NCBI RefSeq assembly: GCF_041248615.1
Contig: NZ_CP158426.1
DNA: 64,000 nucleotides
Direction: 5' to 3' (one strand)
Source of the DNA: Escherichia coli
GTDB lineage: Bacteria; Pseudomonadota; Gammaproteobacteria; Enterobacterales; Enterobacteriaceae
The notes under the pieces were generated by a model that saw nothing but the letters and a program-made list of their open reading frames with translations, did not search any database and was not told the DNA's origin. Shown piece by piece: positions 4,296-26,010 of this stretch (the first letter of the stretch is position 1; every line of letters begins with the position of its first letter). The translations under genes were made by a program, and so were the position numbers.

Positions 4296-4364
4296 ATGGC
4301 CATAAGCATCAAGGGTGTTAATACCGGTGTTATTCGCAAGAGCAATAATTTCATTGCACTGGCG
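4296..4364 (+). pseudogene. yjeJ: yjeJ 5' fragment (first ~23 codons), separated from the rest of the gene by IS1
   Basis: ATG at 4296 then MAISIKGVNTGVIRKSNNFIALA; the frame continues after IS1 at 5133 (…LKIKEPRNKESLFFLSVMEL…). Confidence 0.7.
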
Positions 4365-4379
4365 GGTAATGACTCCAAC

Positions 4380-14135: not shown

Positions 14136-15808
14136 TCCTGCTACTTTGCAGCACTTCCGTTTTTGCCGGATTATTCGACGCGCCGGGACGTTCACAATTT
14201 GTCCCCGCGGATCAAGCCTTTGCTTTTGATTTTCAGCAAAACCAACATGACCTGAATCTGACCTGGCAGATCAAAGACGGTTATTACCTCTACCGTAAAC
14301 AGATCCGCATTACGCCGGAACACGCGAAAATTGCCGACGTACAGCTGCCGCAAGGCGTCTGGCATGAAGATGAGTTTTACGGCAAAAGCGAGATTTACCG
14401 CGATCGGCTGACGCTTCCCGTAACCATCAACAAGGCGAGTGCGGGAGCGACGTTAACTGTCACCTACCAGGGCTGTGCTGATGCCGGTTTCTGTTATCCG
14501 CCAGAAACCAAAACCGTTCCGTTAAGCGAAGTGGTCGTCAACAACTCAGCGCCACAGCCTGTGTCTGTTCCGCAGCAAGAGCAGCCCACCGCGCAATTGC
14601 CCTTTTCCGCGCTCTGGGCGTTGTTGATCGGTATTGGTATAGCCTTTACGCCATGCGTGCTGCCAATGTACCCACTGATTTCTGGTATCGTGCTGGGCGG
14701 TAAACAGCGGCTCTCCACTGCCAGAGCATTGTTGCTGACCTTTATTTATGTGCAGGGGATGGCGCTGACTTACACGGCACTGGGTCTGGTGGTTGCCGCC
14801 GCAGGGTTACAGTTCCAGGCGGCGCTACAGCACCCATACGTGCTCATTGGCCTCGCTATCGTCTTTACCTTGCTGGCGATGTCAATGTTTGGCTTGTTTA
14901 CTCTGCAACTCCCCTCTTCGCTGCAAACACGTCTCACGCTGATGAGCAATCGCCAACAGGGCGGCTCACCTGGCGGTGTGTTTGTTATGGGGGCGATTGC
15001 CGGACTGATCTGTTCACCATGCACCACCGCACCGCTTAGCGCGATTCTGCTGTATATCGCCCAAAGCGGGAACATGTTGCTGGGGGGCGGCACGCTTTAT
15101 CTCTATGCGTTGGGCATGGGCCTGCCGCTGATGCTAATAACCGTCTTTGGTAACCGCCTGCTGCCGAAAAGCGGCCCGTGGATGGAACAAGTCAAAACCG
15201 CGTTTGGTTTTGTGATCCTCGCACTGCCGGTCTTCCTGCTGGAGCGAGTGATTGGTGATATATGGGGATTACGCTTGTGGTCGGCGCTTGGTGTCGCATT
15301 CTTTGGCTGGGCCTTTATCACCAGCCTACAGGCCAAACGCGGCTGGATGCGCGTGGTGCAAATAATCCTGCTGGCAGCGGCATTAGTTAGCGTGCGCCCA
15401 CTTCAGGATTGGGCATTTGGTGCGACGCATACCGCGCAAACTCAGACGCATCTCAACTTTACACAAATCAAAACGGTAGATGAGTTAAATCAGGCGCTCG
15501 TTGAAGCCAAAGGCAAACCGGTGATGTTAGATCTCTATGCCGACTGGTGCGTCGCCTGTAAAGAGTTTGAGAAATACACCTTCAGCGACCCGCAGGTGCA
15601 AAAAGCGTTAGCAGACACGGTATTACTTCAGGCCAACGTCACTGCCAACGACGCACAAGATGTGGCGCTGTTAAAGCATCTTAATGTCCTTGGCCTACCG
15701 ACAATTCTCTTTTTTGACGGACAAGGCCAGGAGCATCCACAAGCACGCGTCACGGGCTTTATGGATGCTGAAACCTTCAGCGCACATTTGCGCGATCGCC
15801 AACCGTGA
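14111..15808 (+). CDS. dsbD: Thiol:disulfide interchange protein DsbD
   Basis: ORF 14030..15808; recognised 565-aa protein starts at ATG 14111 ([19 protein letters not shown]…); C-terminal thioredoxin-like CVAC motif; overlaps cutA end. Confidence 0.93.
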
Positions 15809-15844
15809 ACGACACTTGCAGTGGGAAAGACGGAGGAAAATAGC

Positions 15845-16420
15845 GTGCAACGTGAAGATGTACTGGGAGAAGCCCTGAAATTATTAGAATTACAAGGGAT
15901 TGCCAACACCACGCTGGAGATGGTTGCTGAACGTGTGGATTATCCACTGGACGAGCTGCGCCGTTTCTGGCCAGACAAAGAGGCAATCCTCTACGATGCG
16001 CTGCGTTATCTTAGCCAACAGATAGATGTCTGGCGTCGTCAGCTGATGCTGGACGAAACGCAAACCGCCGAACAAAAGCTGCTGGCACGTTATCAGGCGT
16101 TATCGGAGTGCGTTAAAAACAACCGCTATCCGGGCTGTCTGTTTATCGCTGCCTGTACGTTTTATCCCGATCCTGGCCACCCTATTCATCAACTGGCCGA
16201 TCAGCAAAAAAGCGCGGCCTACGATTTCACCCACGAACTGTTAACCACGCTGGAAGTTGACGATCCGGCGATGGTAGCAAAGCAGATGGAACTGGTGCTG
16301 GAAGGCTGTTTAAGCCGAATGCTGGTGAATCGTAGCCAGGCGGATGTCGACACCGCACATCGGCTGGCAGAAGATATCCTGCGCTTCGCTCGCTGCCGCC
16401 AGGGTGGCGCACTGACCTGA
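15845..16420 (+). CDS. yjdC: TetR-family transcriptional regulator YjdC
   Basis: ORF 15821..16420; the 191-aa form begins at GTG 15845 ([31 protein letters not shown]…); start choice is uncertain. Confidence 0.8.
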
Positions 16421-16526
16421 CAGAAACACAGAAAAGAAGCGATTTGCCGCAATCTTAAGCAGTTGAATCGCTTTTACTGAAATTAGGTTGACGAGATGTG
16501 CAGATTACGGTTTAATGCGCCCCGTT

Positions 16527-16602
16527 GCCCGGATAGCTCAGTCGGTAGAGCAGGGGATTGAAAATCCCCGTGTCCTTGGTTCGATTCCGAGTCCGGGCAC
16601 CA
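16527..16602 (+). tRNA. pheU: tRNA-Phe (GAA anticodon)
   Basis: Sequence gcccggatagctcagtcggtagagcaggggattgaaaatccccgtgtccttggttcgattccgagtccgggcacca read directly; cloverleaf and CCA end present. Confidence 0.97.
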
Positions 16603-16612
16603 AATTCATATA

Positions 16613-16640
16613 AACGGACCTCCACGGAGGTCCGTTTTTC
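16613..16640 (+). terminator. Rho-independent terminator after pheU
   Basis: aaacggacctcc-acgg-aggtccgttttt hairpin plus T-run immediately 3' of the tRNA. Confidence 0.8.
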
Positions 16641-17218
16641 GTTTCAGGACGCCACAATTTAAGCGTTCTGCCTAAAAATCATTTCTACCGAACTCAACCA
16701 AATTCTCCCCACAACACCAGCATTTTGCGGGTATATCCCAATTCGGGAAAATTTGTTCCTGAGCTATAGCGCTGACTGACGTGAAATGTCGTGCGACCCC
16801 GTGATGCTGTTGAATGTCAAATGACGTCATCAGGAGCGTAACGCATCCATAAAGCACAACACCGGTCTGAACGCCGACTGATGAGATTTTCTGAATGAGA
16901 ACAAAGAGAAATGTATCAGTCCGCTTGCTCATGCAAAGACTAACAATCCATTAAAATAGTAAGCGCTCCGGACAATTTTCCATGGATTATTTTCTGAACA
17001 TTTTTCTTTGGCAAAGATGATGAATTTTGATGGTAAGGAATATTACTTCTGGTTCTCAGTAAAATCCTTTCTCAATACTATGTGATCAAGAAGTTTATGT
17101 CTGGTAAAAATAACGTCTTGCATTCACCAATAATATGTAAATAAACCCATCTATAGATGGTAAAAATAGGTTGTGGCAATTATCATTGCATCATTCCCTT
17201 TTCGAATGAGTTTCTATT

Positions 17219-18757
17219 ATGCAACAACCTGTAGTTCGCGTTGGCGAATGGCTTGTTACTCCGTCCATAAACCAAATTAGCCGCAATGGGCGTCAACTTA
17301 CCCTTGAGCCGAGATTAATCGATCTTCTGGTTTTCTTTGCTCAACACAGTGGCGAAGTACTTAGCAGGGATGAACTTATCGATAATGTCTGGAAGAGAAG
17401 TATTGTCACCAATCACGTTGTGACGCAGAGTATCTCAGAACTACGTAAGTCATTAAAAGATAATGATGAAGATAGTCCTGTCTATATCGCTACTGTACCA
17501 AAGCGCGGCTATAAATTAATGGTGCCGGTTATCTGGTACAGCGAAGAAGAGGGAGAGGAAATAATGCTATCTTCGCCTCCCCCTATACCAGAGGCGGTTC
17601 CTGACACAGATTCTCCCTCCCACAGTCTTAACATTCAAAACACCGCAACGCCACCTGAACAATCCCCAGTTAAAAGCAAACGATTCACTACCTTTTGGGT
17701 ATGGTTTTTTTTCCTGTTGTCGTTAGGTATCTGTGTAGCACTGGTAGCGTTTTCAAGTCTTGATACACGTCTTCCGATGAGCAAATCGCGTATTTTGCTC
17801 AATCCACGCGATATTGACATTAATATGGTAAATAAAAGTTGTAACAGCTGGAGTTCCCCGTATCAGCTCTCTTACGCGATAGGCGTGGGTGATTTGGTGG
17901 CGACATCACTTAACACCTTCTCCACCTTTATGGTGCATGACAAAATCAACTACAACATTGATGAACCGAGCAGTTCCGGTAAAACATTATCTATTGCGTT
18001 TGTTAATCAGCGCCAATACCGTGCTCAACAATGCTTTATGTCGGTAAAATTGGTAGACAATGCAGATGGTTCAACCATGCTGGATAAACGTTATGTCATC
18101 ACTAACGGTAATCAGCTGGCGATTCAAAATGATTTACTCCAGAGTTTATCAAAAGCGTTAAACCAACCGTGGCCACAACGAATGCAGGAGATGCTCCAGC
18201 AAATTTTGCCTCATCGTGGTGCGTTATTAACTAATTTTTATCAGGCACATGATTATTTACTGCATGGCGATGATAAATCATTGAACCGTGCCAGTGAATT
18301 ATTAGGTGAGATTGTTCAATCATCCCCAGAATTTACCTACGCGAGAGCAGAAAAAGCATTAGTTGATATCGTGCGCCATTCTCAACATCCTTTAGATGAA
18401 AAACAATTAGCAGCACTGAACACAGAAATAGATAACATTGTTACACTACCGGAATTGAATAACCTGTCCATTATATATCAAATAAAAGCGGTCAGTGCTC
18501 TGGTAAAAGGTAAAACAGATGAGTCTTACCAGGCGATAAATACTGGCATTGATCTTGAAATGTCCTGGCTAAATTATGTGTTGCTTGGCAAGGTTTATGA
18601 AATGAAGGGGATGAACCGGGAAGCAGCTGATGCATATCTCACCGCCTTTAATTTACGCCCAGGGGCAAACACCCTTTACTGGATTGAAAATGGTATATTC
18701 CAGACTTCTGTTCCTTATGTTGTACCTTATCTCGACAAATTTCTCGCTTCAGAATAA
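17219..18757 (+). CDS. cadC: Membrane-integrated ToxR-like transcriptional activator CadC
   Basis: 512-aa ORF MQQPVVRVGEWLVTPSINQISRNGRQLTLEPR… with winged-helix N-terminus and a single TM segment. Confidence 0.95.
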   Translation: MQQPVVRVGEWLVTPSINQISRNGRQLTLEPRLIDLLVFFAQHSGEVLSRDELIDNVWKRSIVTNHVVTQSISELRKSLKDNDEDSPVYIATVPKRGYKLMVPVIWYSEEEGEEIMLSSPPPIPEAVPDTDSPSHSLNIQNTATPPEQSPVKSKRFTTFWVWFFFLLSLGICVALVAFSSLDTRLPMSKSRILLNPRDIDINMVNKSCNSWSSPYQLSYAIGVGDLVATSLNTFSTFMVHDKINYNIDEPSSSGKTLSIAFVNQRQYRAQQCFMSVKLVDNADGSTMLDKRYVITNGNQLAIQNDLLQSLSKALNQPWPQRMQEMLQQILPHRGALLTNFYQAHDYLLHGDDKSLNRASELLGEIVQSSPEFTYARAEKALVDIVRHSQHPLDEKQLAALNTEIDNIVTLPELNNLSIIYQIKAVSALVKGKTDESYQAINTGIDLEMSWLNYVLLGKVYEMKGMNREAADAYLTAFNLRPGANTLYWIENGIFQTSVPYVVPYLDKFLASE

Positions 18758-19122
18758 GTAACTCCCGGGTTGATTTATGCTCGGCAATATTTATTGTTGA
18801 GTTTTTGTATGTTTCTGTTGGTATAATATGTTGCGGTAATTTATTTGCCGCATAATTTTTATTACATAAATTTAACCAGAAAATGTCCCGCAATCCATTG
18901 TAAACATTGAATGTTTATCTTTTCATGATATCAACTTGCGATCCTGATGTGTTAATAAAAAACCTCAAGTTCTCACTTACAGAAACTTTTGTGTTATTTC
19001 ACCTAATCTTTAGGATTAATCCTTTTTTCGTGAGTATTCTTAGCGCCAGTTTGGTCTGGTCAGGAAATAGTTATACATCATGACCCGGACTCCAAATTCA
19101 AAAATGAAATTAGGAGAAGAGC
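18758..19122 (+). promoter_or_regulatory. cadBA promoter region (Pcad; CadC and H-NS target)
   Basis: AT-rich 365-bp intergenic region between cadC and cadB; individual sites not resolved by eye. Confidence 0.5.
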
Positions 19123-20457
19123 ATGAGTTCTGCCAAGAAGATCGGGCTATTTGCCTGTACCGGTGTGGTTGCCGGTAATATGATGGGGAGCGGTATTGCA
19201 TTATTACCTGCGAACCTAGCAAGTATCGGTGGTATTGCTATCTGGGGTTGGATTATCTCTATTATTGGTGCAATGTCGCTGGCGTATGTATATGCCCGAC
19301 TGGCAACAAAAAACCCGCAACAAGGTGGCCCAATTGCTTATGCCGGAGAAATTTCCCCTGCATTTGGTTTTCAGACAGGTGTTCTTTATTACCATGCTAA
19401 CTGGATTGGTAACCTGGCGATTGGTATTACCGCTGTATCTTATCTTTCCACCTTCTTCCCAGTATTAAATGATCCTGTTCCGGCGGGTATCGCCTGTATT
19501 GCTATCGTCTGGGTATTTACCTTTGTAAATATGCTCGGCGGTACCTGGGTAAGCCGTTTAACCACTATTGGTCTGGTGCTGGTTCTTATTCCTGTGGTGA
19601 TGACTGCTATTGTTGGCTGGCATTGGTTTGATGCTGCAACTTATGCAGCTAACTGGAATACTGCGGATACCACTGATGGTCATGCGATCATTAAAAGTAT
19701 TCTGCTCTGCCTGTGGGCCTTCGTGGGTGTTGAATCCGCAGCAGTAAGTACTGGTATGGTTAAAAACCCGAAACGTACCGTTCCGCTGGCAACCATGCTG
19801 GGTACTGGTTTAGCAGGTATTGTTTATATCGCTGCGACTCAGGTGCTTTCCGGTATGTATCCGTCTTCTGTAATGGCAGCTTCCGGTGCTCCGTTTGCAA
19901 TCAGTGCTTCAACTATCCTCGGTAACTGGGCTGCGCCGCTGGTTTCTGCATTCACCGCCTTTGCGTGCCTGACTTCTCTGGGCTCCTGGATGATGTTGGT
20001 AGGCCAGGCAGGTGTACGTGCCGCTAACGACGGTAACTTCCCGAAAGTTTATGGTGAAGTCGACAGCAACGGTATTCCGAAAAAAGGTCTGCTGCTGGCT
20101 GCAGTGAAAATGACTGCCCTGATGATCCTCATCACTCTGATGAACTCTGCCGGTGGTAAAGCATCTGACCTGTTCGGTGAACTGACCGGTATCGCAGTAC
20201 TGCTGACTATGCTGCCGTACTTCTACTCTTGCGTTGACCTGATTCGTTTTGAAGGCGTTAACATCCGCAACTTTGTCAGCCTGATCTGCTCTGTACTGGG
20301 TTGCGTGTTCTGCTTCATCGCGCTGATGGGCGCAAGCTCCTTCGAGCTGGCAGGTACCTTCATCGTCAGCCTGATTATTCTGATGTTCTACGCTCGCAAA
20401 ATGCACGAGCGCCAGAGCCACTCAATGGATAACCACACCGCGTCTAACGCACATTAA
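19123..20457 (+). CDS. cadB: Lysine:cadaverine antiporter CadB
   Basis: 444-aa [40 protein letters not shown]…. Confidence 0.95.
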   Translation: MSSAKKIGLFACTGVVAGNMMGSGIALLPANLASIGGIAIWGWIISIIGAMSLAYVYARLATKNPQQGGPIAYAGEISPAFGFQTGVLYYHANWIGNLAIGITAVSYLSTFFPVLNDPVPAGIACIAIVWVFTFVNMLGGTWVSRLTTIGLVLVLIPVVMTAIVGWHWFDAATYAANWNTADTTDGHAIIKSILLCLWAFVGVESAAVSTGMVKNPKRTVPLATMLGTGLAGIVYIAATQVLSGMYPSSVMAASGAPFAISASTILGNWAAPLVSAFTAFACLTSLGSWMMLVGQAGVRAANDGNFPKVYGEVDSNGIPKKGLLLAAVKMTALMILITLMNSAGGKASDLFGELTGIAVLLTMLPYFYSCVDLIRFEGVNIRNFVSLICSVLGCVFCFIALMGASSFELAGTFIVSLIILMFYARKMHERQSHSMDNHTASNAH

Positions 20458-20474
20458 TTAAAAGTATTTTCCGA

Positions 20475-20521
20475 GGCTCCTCCTTTCATTTTGTCCCATG
20501 TGTTGGGAGGGGCCTTTTTTA
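20475..20521 (+). terminator. Stem-loop with U-run between cadB and cadA (possible intercistronic attenuator)
   Basis: aggctcctcc … ggaggggcct (one G-U pair) with a long ~21-nt loop, followed by tttttt; sits 16 bp before cadA ATG. Confidence 0.3.
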
Positions 20522-20536
20522 CCTGGAGATATGACT

Positions 20537-22684
20537 ATGAACGTTATTGCAATATTGAATCACATGGGGGTTTATTTTAAAGAAGAACCCATCCGTGAAC
20601 TTCATCGCGCGCTTGAACGTCTGAACTTCCAGATTGTTTACCCGAACGACCGTGACGACTTATTAAAACTGATCGAAAACAATGCGCGTCTGTGCGGCGT
20701 TATTTTTGACTGGGATAAATATAATCTCGAGCTGTGCGAAGAAATTAGCAAAATGAACGAGAACCTGCCGTTGTACGCGTTCGCTAATACGTATTCCACT
20801 CTCGATGTAAGCCTGAATGACCTGCGTTTACAGATTAGCTTCTTTGAATATGCGCTGGGTGCTGCTGAAGATATTGCTAACAAGATCAAGCAGACCACTG
20901 ACGAATATATCAACACTATTCTGCCTCCGCTGACCAAAGCATTGTTTAAATATGTTCGTGAAGGTAAATATACTTTCTGTACTCCTGGTCACATGGGCGG
21001 TACTGCATTCCAGAAAAGCCCGGTAGGTAGCCTGTTCTATGATTTCTTTGGTCCGAACACCATGAAATCTGATATTTCCATTTCAGTATCTGAACTGGGT
21101 TCTCTGCTGGATCACAGTGGTCCACACAAAGAAGCAGAACAGTATATCGCTCGCGTCTTTAACGCAGACCGCAGCTACATGGTGACCAACGGTACTTCCA
21201 CTGCGAACAAAATTGTTGGTATGTACTCTGCTCCGGCAGGCAGCACCATTCTGATTGACCGTAACTGCCACAAATCGCTGACCCACCTGATGATGATGAG
21301 CGATGTTACGCCAATCTATTTCCGCCCGACCCGTAACGCTTACGGTATTCTTGGTGGTATCCCACAGAGTGAATTCCAGCACGCTACCATTGCTAAGCGC
21401 GTGAAAGAAACACCAAACGCGACCTGGCCGGTACATGCCGTAATTACCAACTCTACCTATGATGGTCTGCTGTACAACACCGACTTCATCAAGAAAACAC
21501 TGGATGTGAAATCCATCCACTTTGACTCCGCGTGGGTGCCTTACACCAACTTCTCACCGATTTACGAAGGTAAATGCGGTATGAGCGGTGGCCGTGTAGA
21601 AGGGAAAGTGATTTACGAAACCCAGTCTACTCACAAACTGCTGGCGGCGTTCTCTCAGGCTTCCATGATCCACGTTAAAGGTGACGTAAACGAAGAAACC
21701 TTTAACGAAGCCTACATGATGCACACCACCACTTCTCCGCACTACGGTATCGTGGCGTCCACTGAAACCGCTGCGGCGATGATGAAAGGCAATGCAGGTA
21801 AGCGTCTGATCAACGGTTCCATTGAACGTGCGATCAAATTCCGTAAAGAGATCAAACGTCTGAGAACGGAATCTGATGGCTGGTTCTTTGATGTATGGCA
21901 GCCGGATCATATCGATACCACTGAATGCTGGCCGCTGCGTTCTGACAGCACCTGGCACGGCTTCAAAAACATCGATAACGAGCACATGTATCTTGACCCG
22001 ATCAAAGTCACCCTGCTGACTCCGGGGATGGAAAAAGACGGCACCATGAGCGACTTCGGTATTCCGGCCAGCATCGTGGCGAAATACCTCGACGAACATG
22101 GCATAGTTGTTGAGAAAACCGGTCCGTATAACCTGCTGTTCCTGTTCAGCATCGGTATCGATAAGACCAAAGCACTGAGCCTGCTGCGTGCTCTGACAGA
22201 CTTCAAACGTGCGTTCGATCTGAACCTGCGTGTGAAAAACATGCTGCCGTCTCTGTATCGTGAAGATCCTGAATTCTATGAAAACATGCGTATTCAGGAA
22301 CTGGCTCAGAATATCCACAAACTGATTGTTCACCACAATCTGCCGGATCTGATGTATCGCGCATTTGAAGTTCTGCCGACCATGGTAATGACTCCGTATG
22401 CTGCGTTCCAGAAAGAGCTGCACGGTATGACCGAAGAAGTTTACCTCGACGAAATGGTAGGTCGTATTAACGCCAATATGATCCTTCCGTATCCGCCGGG
22501 AGTTCCTCTGGTAATGCCGGGTGAAATGATCACCGAAGAAAGCCGTCCGGTTCTGGAGTTCCTGCAGATGCTGTGTGAAATCGGCGCTCACTATCCGGGC
22601 TTTGAAACCGATATTCACGGTGCATACCGTCAGGCTGATGGCCGCTATACCGTTAAGGTATTGAAAGAAGAAAGCAAAAAATAA
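20537..22684 (+). CDS. cadA: Inducible lysine decarboxylase CadA
   Basis: ORF 20498..22684; recognised 715-aa protein starts at ATG 20537 (MNVIAILNHMGVYFKEEPIRELHRALERL…). Confidence 0.96.
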   Translation: MNVIAILNHMGVYFKEEPIRELHRALERLNFQIVYPNDRDDLLKLIENNARLCGVIFDWDKYNLELCEEISKMNENLPLYAFANTYSTLDVSLNDLRLQISFFEYALGAAEDIANKIKQTTDEYINTILPPLTKALFKYVREGKYTFCTPGHMGGTAFQKSPVGSLFYDFFGPNTMKSDISISVSELGSLLDHSGPHKEAEQYIARVFNADRSYMVTNGTSTANKIVGMYSAPAGSTILIDRNCHKSLTHLMMMSDVTPIYFRPTRNAYGILGGIPQSEFQHATIAKRVKETPNATWPVHAVITNSTYDGLLYNTDFIKKTLDVKSIHFDSAWVPYTNFSPIYEGKCGMSGGRVEGKVIYETQSTHKLLAAFSQASMIHVKGDVNEETFNEAYMMHTTTSPHYGIVASTETAAAMMKGNAGKRLINGSIERAIKFRKEIKRLRTESDGWFFDVWQPDHIDTTECWPLRSDSTWHGFKNIDNEHMYLDPIKVTLLTPGMEKDGTMSDFGIPASIVAKYLDEHGIVVEKTGPYNLLFLFSIGIDKTKALSLLRALTDFKRAFDLNLRVKNMLPSLYREDPEFYENMRIQELAQNIHKLIVHHNLPDLMYRAFEVLPTMVMTPYAAFQKELHGMTEEVYLDEMVGRINANMILPYPPGVPLVMPGEMITEESRPVLEFLQMLCEIGAHYPGFETDIHGAYRQADGRYTVKVLKEESKK

Positions 22685-22697
22685 TTAGCTCGTACAA

Positions 22698-22726
22698 GGG
22701 AAGTGGCTTGCCACTTCCCTTTTTTG
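22698..22726 (+). terminator. Rho-independent terminator after cadA
   Basis: gggaagtgg-cttg-ccacttccc stem-loop followed by tttttt. Confidence 0.8.
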
Positions 22727-22742
22727 CTCATAAGGAGAACAC

Positions 22743-24200
22743 ATGAAAACACCCTCACAGCCGCGCGCGATATACTATATCGTGGCGATCCAAATCTGGG
22801 AGTACTTCAGTTTTTACGGCATGCGTGCCTTACTCATTCTCTATCTCACCCATCAGCTTGGTTTTGATGATAACCATGCCATCAGCCTGTTCAGCGCATA
22901 TGCATCTCTGGTTTACGTTACCCCTATTCTCGGCGGCTGGCTTGCCGACCGCCTGCTCGGCAACCGCACTGCAGTGATTGCCGGCGCGCTGTTAATGACC
23001 CTTGGCCATGTGGTGCTGGGCATTGATACAAATTCAACTTTTAGCCTGTATCTGGCGCTGGCAATCATTATTTGTGGCTACGGTTTATTCAAATCAAACA
23101 TCAGCTGTTTGCTTGGCGAGCTCTACGACGAGAACGATCATCGACGTGATGGCGGTTTTTCGCTGCTGTATGCTGCGGGCAATATCGGTTCTATCGCAGC
23201 CCCAATCGCCTGCGGCCTGGCTGCTCAGTGGTATGGATGGCATGTTGGCTTTGCCCTTGCGGGTGGCGGCATGTTTATCGGTTTGTTGATTTTCTTAAGC
23301 GGTCATCGTCATTTCCAGTCCACGCGTAGTATGGATAAAAAAGCGCTAACAAGCGTTAAATTTGCCTTACCAGTATGGAGCTGGTTAGTGGTGATGCTCT
23401 GTTTAGCCCCTGTATTTTTTACCCTGCTGCTGGAGAACGACTGGTCAGGATATTTGCTGGCGATCGTTTGCCTCATTGCCGCACAAATCATTGCCCGCAT
23501 GATGATCAAATTCCCCGAACACCGCCGTGCTCTTTGGCAAATTGTATTGTTGATGTTTGTCGGGACGTTGTTCTGGGTACTGGCACAACAGGGCGGCAGT
23601 ACCATCAGCTTGTTTATCGATCGCTTTGTGAATCGTCAGGCATTCAATATTGAAGTACCTACAGCACTATTCCAGTCGGTGAATGCCATTGCGGTGATGC
23701 TCGCTGGGGTTGTTCTGGCCTGGCTGGCGTCGCCAGAAAGCCGCGGCAATTCAGCATTGCGCGTCTGGCTGAAGTTTGCCTTTGGCTTACTGCTGATGGC
23801 TTGTGGCTTTATGTTGCTGGCATTTGATGCCCGACATGCAGCGGCTGGCGGTCAAGCGTCAATGGGCGTGATGGTATCCGGGCTGGCGCTAATGGGCTTT
23901 GCTGAACTCTTTATTGACCCGGTGGCGATTGCGCAAATCACGCGTCTGAAAATGTCTGGCGTATTAACCGGTATTTATATGCTGGCAACAGGCGCGGTCG
24001 CCAACTGGCTGGCAGGCGTCGTGGCACAGCAGACGACAGAGTCGCAAATTAGCGGTATGGCAATTGCCGCTTACCAGCGATTCTTTTCTCAGATGGGAGA
24101 GTGGACGTTGGCTTGTGTCGCGATCATCGTGGTATTGGCCTTTGCTACCCGTTTTCTGTTTAGCACGCCGACGAATATGATACAGGAGAGTAACGATTAA
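22743..24200 (+). CDS. dtpC: Dipeptide/tripeptide permease DtpC (YjdL), POT family
   Basis: 485-aa [39 protein letters not shown]…. Confidence 0.93.
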
Positions 24201-24436
24201 CTGTCGTAAAAACAATTGGTTATGAATAAATTAACTTTCAGTTTATCACACTAGCAAATCGAGATTAATAAGTCATTTAAACCATTTTTATGGTTATTTA
24301 TTAGTGATATCAACTTGAGGTAAGCGTTAGTTTCGATAAGATAAACTGAGTTATTAATAGTCGAGGCAGATAATACAGTGTACCGATCTGTCTCTTTATC
24401 TACGCTAAATTGAAAGCTGGATTTAGAGGAACCAAA

Positions 24437-25954
24437 ATGTCTGAACGAGAAACACGGGGAGCCAATGAGGCTATTGATTTTAACGATGAACTGAGAAATC
24501 GCCGCGAAAAACTGGCGGCACTACGTCAGCAAGGTGTGGCGTTTCCCAATGATTTTCGCCGCGACCATACCTCTGACCAGTTGCACGAAGAGTTTGATGC
24601 GAAGGATAACCAGGAACTGGAATCCTTAAACATTGAAGTCTCGGTTGCTGGCCGAATGATGACCCGTCGTATCATGGGGAAAGCCTCCTTTGTAACGTTG
24701 CAGGATGTCGGTGGCCGTATTCAACTGTACGTCGCACGAGATAGCCTGCCAGAAGGTGTTTATAACGATCAGTTTAAAAAATGGGATCTGGGTGACATTA
24801 TCGGTGCCCGCGGTACGCTGTTTAAGACGCAAACGGGTGAGCTTTCCATTCACTGTACTGAGCTGCGCCTGCTGACTAAAGCACTACGTCCTTTACCAGA
24901 TAAATTCCATGGTCTGCAGGATCAGGAAGTCCGTTATCGTCAACGTTATCTGGACCTCATCGCTAACGATAAATCCCGTCAAACGTTTGTTGTCCGTTCA
25001 AAAATTCTGGCCGCTATCCGTCAGTTCATGGTCGCGCGCGGCTTTATGGAAGTAGAAACCCCGATGATGCAGGTAATTCCAGGTGGGGCATCTGCTCGCC
25101 CGTTTATTACCCATCATAACGCTCTGGATTTAGATATGTACCTGCGTATCGCGCCAGAGCTGTATCTGAAACGTCTGGTTGTAGGCGGTTTTGAACGGGT
25201 ATTCGAAATCAACCGTAACTTCCGTAATGAAGGTATTTCTGTTCGCCATAATCCTGAGTTCACAATGATGGAACTCTACATGGCGTATGCGGATTACCAC
25301 GATTTGATTGAACTGACAGAGTCACTGTTCCGCACCCTGGCACAAGAGGTTCTGGGTACCACTAAAGTCACTTATGGCGAGCATGTGTTTGATTTCGGCA
25401 AACCGTTTGAAAAACTCACCATGCGCGAAGCAATCAAAAAATATCGTCCAGAAACCGATATGGCCGACCTGGATAATTTTGATGCCGCTAAAGCATTAGC
25501 TGAATCTATTGGTATTACGGTAGAGAAAAGCTGGGGGCTGGGACGTATTGTCACGGAGATCTTTGATGAAGTGGCAGAAGCACATCTGATTCAGCCAACC
25601 TTTATTACGGAATATCCCGCAGAAGTGTCACCGCTGGCGCGCCGTAATGATGTTAACCCGGAAATCACCGACCGATTTGAATTCTTCATCGGTGGTCGTG
25701 AAATCGGTAATGGTTTTAGCGAATTAAACGACGCAGAAGATCAGGCTGAACGTTTCCAGGAACAGGTTAACGCTAAAGCTGCAGGTGACGACGAAGCCAT
25801 GTTCTATGACGAAGATTACGTGACTGCGCTGGAATATGGTTTGCCACCAACCGCTGGTCTGGGTATTGGTATCGACCGAATGATTATGCTGTTTACAAAC
25901 AGTCATACTATTCGCGACGTTATTCTCTTCCCGGCGATGCGCCCACAGAAATAA
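24437..25954 (+). CDS. lysU: Lysyl-tRNA synthetase, inducible isoform LysU
   Basis: ORF 24410..25954; 505-aa protein from ATG 24437 ([33 protein letters not shown]…); assigned to lysU rather than lysS by locus context next to cadA/dtpC. Confidence 0.9.
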
Positions 25955-25975
25955 TTTTCACTTTAATGAACGAAG

Positions 25976-26010
25976 CAGTCAGGCGACTGCTTCGTTCATC
26001 ATTCCGCAAA
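25976..26010. terminator. Palindromic hairpin between convergent lysU and ghoT (possible bidirectional terminator)
   Basis: atgaacgaagcagtc-aggc-gactgcttcgttcat perfect 15-bp stem; no strong T-run on either side. Confidence 0.4.

Follow-up and report, generated by a model that had tools for sequence, protein, structure and literature searches.

The DNA analysed here, a window of 64,000 nucleotides of Escherichia coli contig NZ_CP158426.1, carries the cadC-cadB-cadA-dtpC locus, as identified from the list of open reading frames and the RefSeq annotation of an identical locus. The cadBA operon is a textbook case of acid resistance whose regulation has been examined almost exclusively at the level of the promoter (CadC, LysP and H-NS). 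The present analysis concerns the 79-nt spacer between cadB and cadA, in which RefSeq genomes carry no annotated element. The features of the locus are the following (alignment A1 is described below).

17219-18757: cadC
19123-20457, + strand: cadB coding sequence (open reading frame list; RefSeq annotation of an identical locus)
20455-20457, + strand: cadB stop codon, TAA (open reading frame list; RefSeq)
20458-20536: cadB-cadA spacer, 79 nt
20458-20472, + strand: 5' flank, A/U- and pyrimidine-rich, UUAAAAGUAUUUUCC (from the sequence)
20468-20472, + strand: UUUCC in the 5' flank, paired with the cadA Shine-Dalgarno (SD) sequence in the minimum free energy (MFE) fold
20473-20484, + strand: 5' arm of the conserved stem, GAGGCUCCUCCU (fold; covariation)
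20485-20504, + strand: loop, 20 nt (alignment A1; per-species folds)
20505-20516, + strand: 3' arm of the stem, GGGAGGGGCCUU (fold; covariation)
20515-20520, + strand: T6/U6 run, whose first two U are part of the extended stem
20521-20536, + strand: linker, cadA SD GGAGA (20525-20529) and spacer to the ATG
20522-20553, + strand: predicted pairing site of the sRNA AzuR (AzuCR) on the cadA SD, start and first codons (duplex calculation)
20537-22684, + strand: cadA coding sequence, lysine decarboxylase (start ATG at 20537 according to RefSeq)
22696-22721: canonical intrinsic terminator directly after cadA and before dtpC (11-bp stem, 4-nt loop, TTTTTT)
22743-24200: dtpC

The stem-loop of the cadB-cadA spacer

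The sequence-only reading of this spacer had described a GC-rich inverted repeat, and both of the arms that it quoted are present, aggctcctcc at 20474-20483 and ggaggggcct at 20506-20515, with nine of ten Watson-Crick positions and one T:G. At the RNA level, with G.U pairs included, the stem comprises 12 bp (20473-20484 with 20505-20516) and encloses a loop of 20 nt. Depending on where the helix is ended, the stem is 10-12 bp long with 8 G-C pairs, and the loop, previously estimated at about 21 nt, measures 20 nt with the 12-bp stem and 22 nt with the 10-bp stem. The run of six T residues is likewise found where it had been reported, at 20515-20520, ending 16 bp before the ATG at 20537. The loop interior contains a marginal predicted helix of 3 bp (CAU at 20487-89 with GUG at 20500-02), and the linker that precedes the SD GGAGA is 8 nt long in E. 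coli. The 5' flank (20458-20472) could possibly be, to judge from its sequence, a single-stranded segment of the RNase E type.

The predicted MFE of the spacer is -27 kcal/mol (z = -3.2), and an equally good fold is reached in 2 of 200 dinucleotide shuffles. For the hairpin alone, the sense strand of E. coli gives -23.2 kcal/mol versus -15.5 for the reverse complement; the corresponding means over 36 lineages are -20.6 and -17.0. The greater stability of the sense strand and the many G.U pairs show that selection acts on RNA of the sense strand rather than on a palindrome in the DNA. A search for inverted repeats in the DNA, in which an exact 6-nt seed is needed, did not report the stem of the spacer, because the T:G position leaves arms with exact seeds of 4 and 5 nt only. 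This missed repeat is no evidence against the RNA stem. The hairpin sequence occurs nowhere else in the window, and a repeated element of the REP/BIME type is ruled out by this single copy.

Of the 5204 complete E. coli genomes with the locus, 4846 (93%) share exactly this spacer. Among the rare variants, a G-to-A change in strain CPE35 disrupts one of the G-C pairs in the stem. The cadB-cadA junction itself is unmatched in about 220 of 5426 complete E. coli genomes, as would be expected if some lineages had lost the cad locus; three of the matches that do exist lie on plasmids. Within the hairpin loop, position 20498 begins an ATG that is in frame with cadA and opens a reading frame (20498-22684, 728 aa) 13 codons longer than annotated CadA. 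An N-terminal extension of CadA from this codon was rejected: the ATG is not preceded by an SD, it is absent outside Escherichia and the RefSeq start is at 20537. It is therefore probably unused as a start.

An Rfam cmscan of positions 15000-26000 (E <= 1) reported only a tRNA gene at 16527-16599 (68 bits) and returned nothing in the spacer. This tRNA gene lies upstream of cadC and is followed by a terminator-like hairpin at 16612-16637. In a related genome the same neighbourhood upstream of cadC holds an integrase fragment and a DUF4942 pseudogene, and their proximity to the tRNA suggests the remnant of an island inserted there.

Conservation, covariation and position of the hairpin

cadB loci were collected from 80 species-representative genomes and their spacers extracted. 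A strong spacer hairpin is found in nearly all of the cadBA operons among them, always in the same context, between cadB and cadA and a short distance before the cadA ATG. In Enterobacteriaceae other than Escherichia the hairpin has two tiers: an outer stem, which is the counterpart of the E. coli stem, an asymmetric bulge of about 7 nt on the 5' side, an inner stem CCUGUCAC/GUGACGGG and a 3-nt loop. The long loop of E. coli is the degenerate remnant of the 5' bulge and inner stem present in these relatives. This decay of the apical half shows that Escherichia can do without some of what is conserved elsewhere. Within the 3' arm, GGGAGGGGC is nearly invariant across Enterobacteriaceae. The same architecture is built from different or unrelated arms in Serratia, Yersinia ruckeri, Izhakiella, Enterobacillus, Hafnia, Edwardsiella, Vibrio and Aeromonas, the stems of the last two being unrelated in sequence.

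Alignment A1, a MAFFT alignment of 36 Enterobacteriaceae that is not fitted to any structure, has 85.9% of its stem cells paired, versus 49-58% with slid partners, and contains 31 double-change cells, versus 4-18 with slid partners. In a covariance model (CM) alignment of 46 species, which includes Serratia, Yersinia ruckeri, Izhakiella and Enterobacillus, 89.4% of cells are paired (52-61% with slid partners), compensatory changes occur in 14 of 17 pairs and none of 500 shuffles reaches the observed values; CM alignments are fitted to the structure and lean towards it, and these numbers are somewhat inflated. A second-iteration model places the element at the same position in Hafnia, Edwardsiella and Vibrio, with E-values of 6.5e-5 to 0.14. 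At the shortest evolutionary range, E. coli and E. albertii differ by one compensatory G-C to A-U change in the stem. RNAalifold applied to the raw MAFFT alignment recovers only 9 pairs, in a shifted register, and the exact boundary between outer and inner stem is ambiguous, since the run of G in the 3' arm permits alternative registers. The hairpin is an RNA structure conserved across Enterobacterales and Vibrio.

Measured from the 3' end of the stem, the cadA ATG lies about 19-27 nt away in nearly all lineages; on the other side, the stem may lie anywhere between 5 and 79 nt from the cadB stop. This fixed spacing on one side and variable spacing on the other indicates that the element travels with the cadA ribosome-binding site (RBS).

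Its position bears on the classical role of stable intercistronic hairpins, known from malEFG and pufBA, in which the upstream segment is protected. Applied here, an endonuclease would cut the U/A-rich linker, the hairpin would block 3'-to-5' exonucleases and the cadB segment would be stabilised. The layout of the spacer, a stable hairpin followed by a U/C-rich single-stranded linker, is what such a barrier would look like, but the hairpin is placed relative to cadA and not to the cadB stop, long-spacer Vibrio and Edwardsiella own a separate hairpin right after cadB, and cadB mRNA is the less abundant segment (see below). A 3'-end barrier for cadB is accordingly an improbable explanation of the element. 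The comparison with the REP element of malE-malF, the hairpins of Rhodobacter pufBA and papBA processing shows the same balance: a stable stem-loop in a spacer and segments of unequal abundance are shared, but those elements protect the upstream segment, whereas in cadBA it is the downstream cadA that is more abundant and the downstream RBS to which the hairpin is tied.

The second hairpin of the long-spacer lineages is perfect and lies right after the cadB stop in three Vibrio loci (in one of them, L075, at 4352-4371 of the locus) and three Edwardsiella loci. A Vibrio example is GCUGGCACUACGGUGCCAGC, which is additional to the conserved hairpin before cadA.

Hairpins are also found in related operons. 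Paralogous cadBA-like operons (CadA 76-80% identical) occur at six loci in Hafnia, Edwardsiella, Pluralibacter and Enterobacillus, and most of their spacers contain an unrelated, GC-rich and perfect hairpin. In the paralogous antiporter-decarboxylase operons of Hafnia, Edwardsiella and Pluralibacter the intercistronic hairpin is strong and different from that of cadBA. The occurrence of strong hairpins of unrelated sequence in paralogous operons suggests a generic structural role and not a sequence-specific one. Several genomes also contain cadB-like genes with no decarboxylase downstream (eight loci).

The arms themselves bear a resemblance to sequences of translation initiation. The 5' arm, which reads CUCCUCC here and CUCCUUCC in relatives, is similar to the anti-SD end of 16S rRNA; the 3' arm (GGGAGGGG) looks like an SD sequence, and the bulge of the Klebsiella type, AUCACCU, is as in the 16S 3' end. 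The resemblance fails in Vibrio and Aeromonas and may be a coincidence.

The U run and transcript levels across the spacer

The sequence-only reading had proposed that the stem-loop might be a partial terminator, or an RNA processing or stability element, setting the ratio of antiporter to decarboxylase. In the first of these forms, an intrinsic (Rho-independent) terminator or attenuator after cadB would lower cadA expression relative to cadB. Intrinsic terminators have a GC-rich stem (~5-14 bp), a U tract 3' of the stem, a short loop (usually 3-8 nt) and a drop in transcript downstream. The E. coli hairpin has the first two, its stem being GC-rich and 10-12 bp long (-23 kcal/mol) with U6 directly 3' of it, and in this version only it recalls terminators and intra-operon attenuators such as that of rplL-rpoB; identity of the spacer in 93% of E. 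coli genomes could also be counted in favour of such a role. It differs from them in its loop of 20-22 nt, in a U run that relatives do not conserve and in a transcript density that is higher, not lower, downstream. In a terminator scan for loops of 3-8 nt, the terminator following cadA (22696-22721) was called and the spacer hairpin was not.

The U run has a narrow distribution. UUUUUU is found only in E. coli and in a near-identical Escherichia sp.; E. albertii and a sister Escherichia species have TTCTTT at this position, and elsewhere the corresponding sequence is UUUCUAC in Klebsiella, CCCACUUU in Salmonella and CUCCCCAU in Buttiauxella, none of which contains a run. Sequence comparison identifies the U6 of E. 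coli as a derived state that differs from TTCTTT by a single C-to-T change. Since the run is absent or interrupted in all other lineages that keep the hairpin, it is not part of the conserved element. The terminator-like appearance of the E. coli hairpin is thus the product of one C-to-T change, which gave U6, and of the decay of the apical stem, which gave the long loop.

Published RNA-seq and Ribo-seq data give the expression on both sides of the spacer (Schumacher et al. 2023, PMC10746267, supplementary file 5). The columns of this file were identified from the listed translation efficiency, which equals Ribo/RNA, and from fold changes that match the tables of the paper. At pH 4.4 the RNA-seq values (RPKM) are 2827/1973/2165 for cadA and 1412/1795/1200 for cadB, and at pH 5.8 they are 492/698/414 and 290/355/289, respectively. 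The means are 2322 for cadA versus 1469 for cadB at pH 4.4 and 534 versus 311 at pH 5.8. The values at pH 7.6 are about 2-7 for either gene. The Ribo-seq values for cadA and cadB are, respectively, 2447/1826/2255 and 607/402/434 at pH 4.4, and 395/454/530 and 188/179/182 at pH 5.8. The cadA/cadB RNA ratio is therefore ~1.6 at pH 4.4 and ~1.7 at pH 5.8, although a 1.6-fold difference in RNA-seq density could reflect library bias or an acid-inducible internal promoter. Ribosome density on cadA is 2.5-4.5 times that on cadB, and the translation efficiency of cadA (~0.9) is above that of cadB.

With more cadA than cadB RNA there is no loss of transcript across the spacer, and a terminator that set the ratio of the two genes would act in the wrong direction. 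An internal cadA promoter was considered and rejected: a simple promoter scan found no promoter-like site on the + strand in 19900-20536, which is weak evidence, and the equally low level of cadA and cadB at pH 7.6 (both ~2-7 RPKM) indicates that there is no constitutive internal promoter. In Edwardsiella tarda, RT-PCR has demonstrated co-transcription, with read-through over the homologous 148-bp cadB-cadA spacer (PMC8438976). The curated Term-seq table of Adams et al. 2021 contains no 3' end in the cadA/cadB spacer; the cells of that study were grown without cad induction, and the observation weighs little against a terminator, which is compatible with Term-seq from non-inducing media, the operon being off. 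The same study reports, in uninduced cells, a Rho-dependent region inside cadB (MG1655 4359249, minus strand, at approximately 19916 of the window) and another inside cadC (MG1655 4360512).

The partial terminator is thus disfavoured by the U run being specific to E. coli, by the over-long loop, by the higher level of cadA RNA under induction and by the E. tarda read-through; the stoichiometry speaks against it too, since ribosome density puts the synthesis of CadA per codon at about 2.5-4.5 times that of CadB. An intrinsic terminator or attenuator that lowers cadA is for these reasons unlikely, and termination at the spacer hairpin in E. coli probably concerns a small fraction of transcripts. 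The other half of the earlier proposal fares better. An RNA processing or stability element is plausible, and covariation has strengthened it, but any effect on the CadB:CadA ratio would run in the direction opposite to that of a terminator, since the operon favours CadA.

A proposed structural boundary at the cadA leader

The stem-loop of E. coli is interpreted here as the Escherichia version of a conserved structured RNA that lies in the cadBA spacer, belongs functionally to the cadA leader and serves as a boundary or insulator between the cistrons, a reading to which we assign a probability of about 0.5. The element probably acts post-transcriptionally, through processing, stability or insulation of the RBS. 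On this reading RNA polymerase passes through the hairpin, and cadBA stays a single Pcad transcript. On this RNA, a stable GC-rich helix ends some 20 nt before the start codon of cadA, two-tiered in most Enterobacterales and Vibrio and reduced to its basal helix in Escherichia. The most likely role of the hairpin would be to separate the two cistrons structurally, by either or both of two means. It may form a nuclease-resistant 5' boundary or a processing landmark, with the result that the cadA segment persists; alternatively, it may insulate the pyrimidine-rich linker and the cadA SD, keeping them free of upstream pairing. Under either, the level of cadA mRNA would equal or exceed that of cadB mRNA and cadA would be translated more efficiently, and the terminator-like look of the E. 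coli version would be secondary. The data show the structure, its conservation and covariation, its tie to the cadA RBS and the lack of a transcript drop; from there on, a stabilising or insulating mechanism is inferred.

In its working the E. coli element is closer to the intercistronic or 5' stabilising stem-loops of malEFG, puf, pap and ompA than to an intrinsic terminator. Similar arrangements are known from the ompA 5' UTR and from papA after RNase E cleavage, in which a strong hairpin stands at a short and fixed distance before the RBS of an abundant gene. The candidate RNase E site of E. coli cadBA, the A/U-rich single-stranded segment that precedes the hairpin, adds to the likeness. 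In contrast to these stabilisers, the cadBA hairpin is internal to a polycistronic RNA, and a processed cadA 5' end is hypothetical. Moreover, hairpins that stabilise an RNA from its 5' terminus normally require that hardly any 5' nucleotides be unpaired, which counts against the reading of the cadA hairpin as a 5' stabiliser.

Another reading is a translational-coupling switch, in which UUUCC (20468-20472) would pair with the cadA SD GGAGA, the hairpin would clamp the two together and ribosomes terminating on cadB would open the structure, so that translation of cadA would hinge on that of cadB. This closing helix is present in the MFE folds of E. coli and many relatives, and 80.6% of its cells pair in alignment A1. 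However, the same alignment contains no compensatory change in it, and one of its pairs is broken in 24 of 36 sequences. The energy of the flank-SD duplex is no better than that of composition-preserving shuffles of the flank (33 lineages; median p = 0.6, none < 0.1). The cadB stop of Hafnia, Edwardsiella and Vibrio lies 40-79 nt away, and a clamped cadA sits poorly with its translation efficiency, which exceeds that of cadB. The UUUCC:GGAGA helix was consequently rejected as a selected feature, showing no covariation and no more than chance-level pairing relative to shuffled flanks. A leader that sequesters its SD would be recognised by specific and conserved pairing of an upstream segment with the SD, and none was found in the cadA leader. 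A coupling switch is very unlikely.

The only post-transcriptional control of cadA found in the searchable literature is that by AzuR, which represses cadA by pairing near the RBS, as shown with compensatory mutations (Raina et al. 2022, PMC8915982). Only the combined mutation of hfq and proQ abolishes this repression, and the conservation of azuCR is described there as not broad (PMC8915982). In a duplex calculation with AzuR of MG1655 the best site is 20522-20553, which starts 2 nt after the U run. Pairing of AzuR with the hairpin itself was therefore discarded, the best duplex being downstream and adjoining the hairpin without overlap. The published target site and the hairpin thus share a leader region, but AzuR pairs with the SD, start and early codons and not with the hairpin, and the narrow distribution of AzuCR contrasts with the broad one of the hairpin.

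This proximity raises the idea that the hairpin and its U run are a docking site for Hfq, ProQ or another protein that promotes pairing of AzuR at the cadA RBS. The dependence of repression on hfq and proQ fits such a role, as do the start of the AzuR site 2 nt past the U run and the narrow range of azuCR, which parallels the U6 specific to E. coli. The hairpin is nonetheless far older and more widespread than AzuCR, and what has conserved it cannot be docking of Hfq or ProQ for AzuR. Binding data were not found, and only one lineage connects U6 with AzuCR, leaving chaperone docking a highly improbable account of the element.

A broader proposal would combine several of these features. The two-tier hairpin may represent a dedicated cis-regulatory RNA family of the lysine-decarboxylase operons of Enterobacterales and Vibrionaceae, acting as a site for a protein or RNase, or responding to conditions, and setting CadA independently of CadB. 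E. coli would have remodelled it by losing the apical stem and gaining U6, possibly recruiting Hfq or ProQ for AzuR. We regard this proposal as speculative and rather unlikely; the boundary or insulator role remains the preferred reading.

The searchable literature contains no description of an element or terminator in the cadB-cadA spacer, nor of transcripts carrying cadA or cadB alone, although an early mention is possible. The sequence comparisons give good support to the view that the hairpin is an unannotated conserved RNA structure in a much-studied operon, and its function is likely to be an ordinary one. For annotation, it illustrates that an intra-operon hairpin followed by a U run can be a lineage-specific terminator look-alike that arose through one substitution. 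For the cad system, a covarying hairpin and a ribosome density 2.5-4.5 times greater on cadA than on cadB point to an unexamined post-transcriptional layer. Such a layer adjoins the only known sRNA site on cadA and could set the ratio of enzyme to antiporter.
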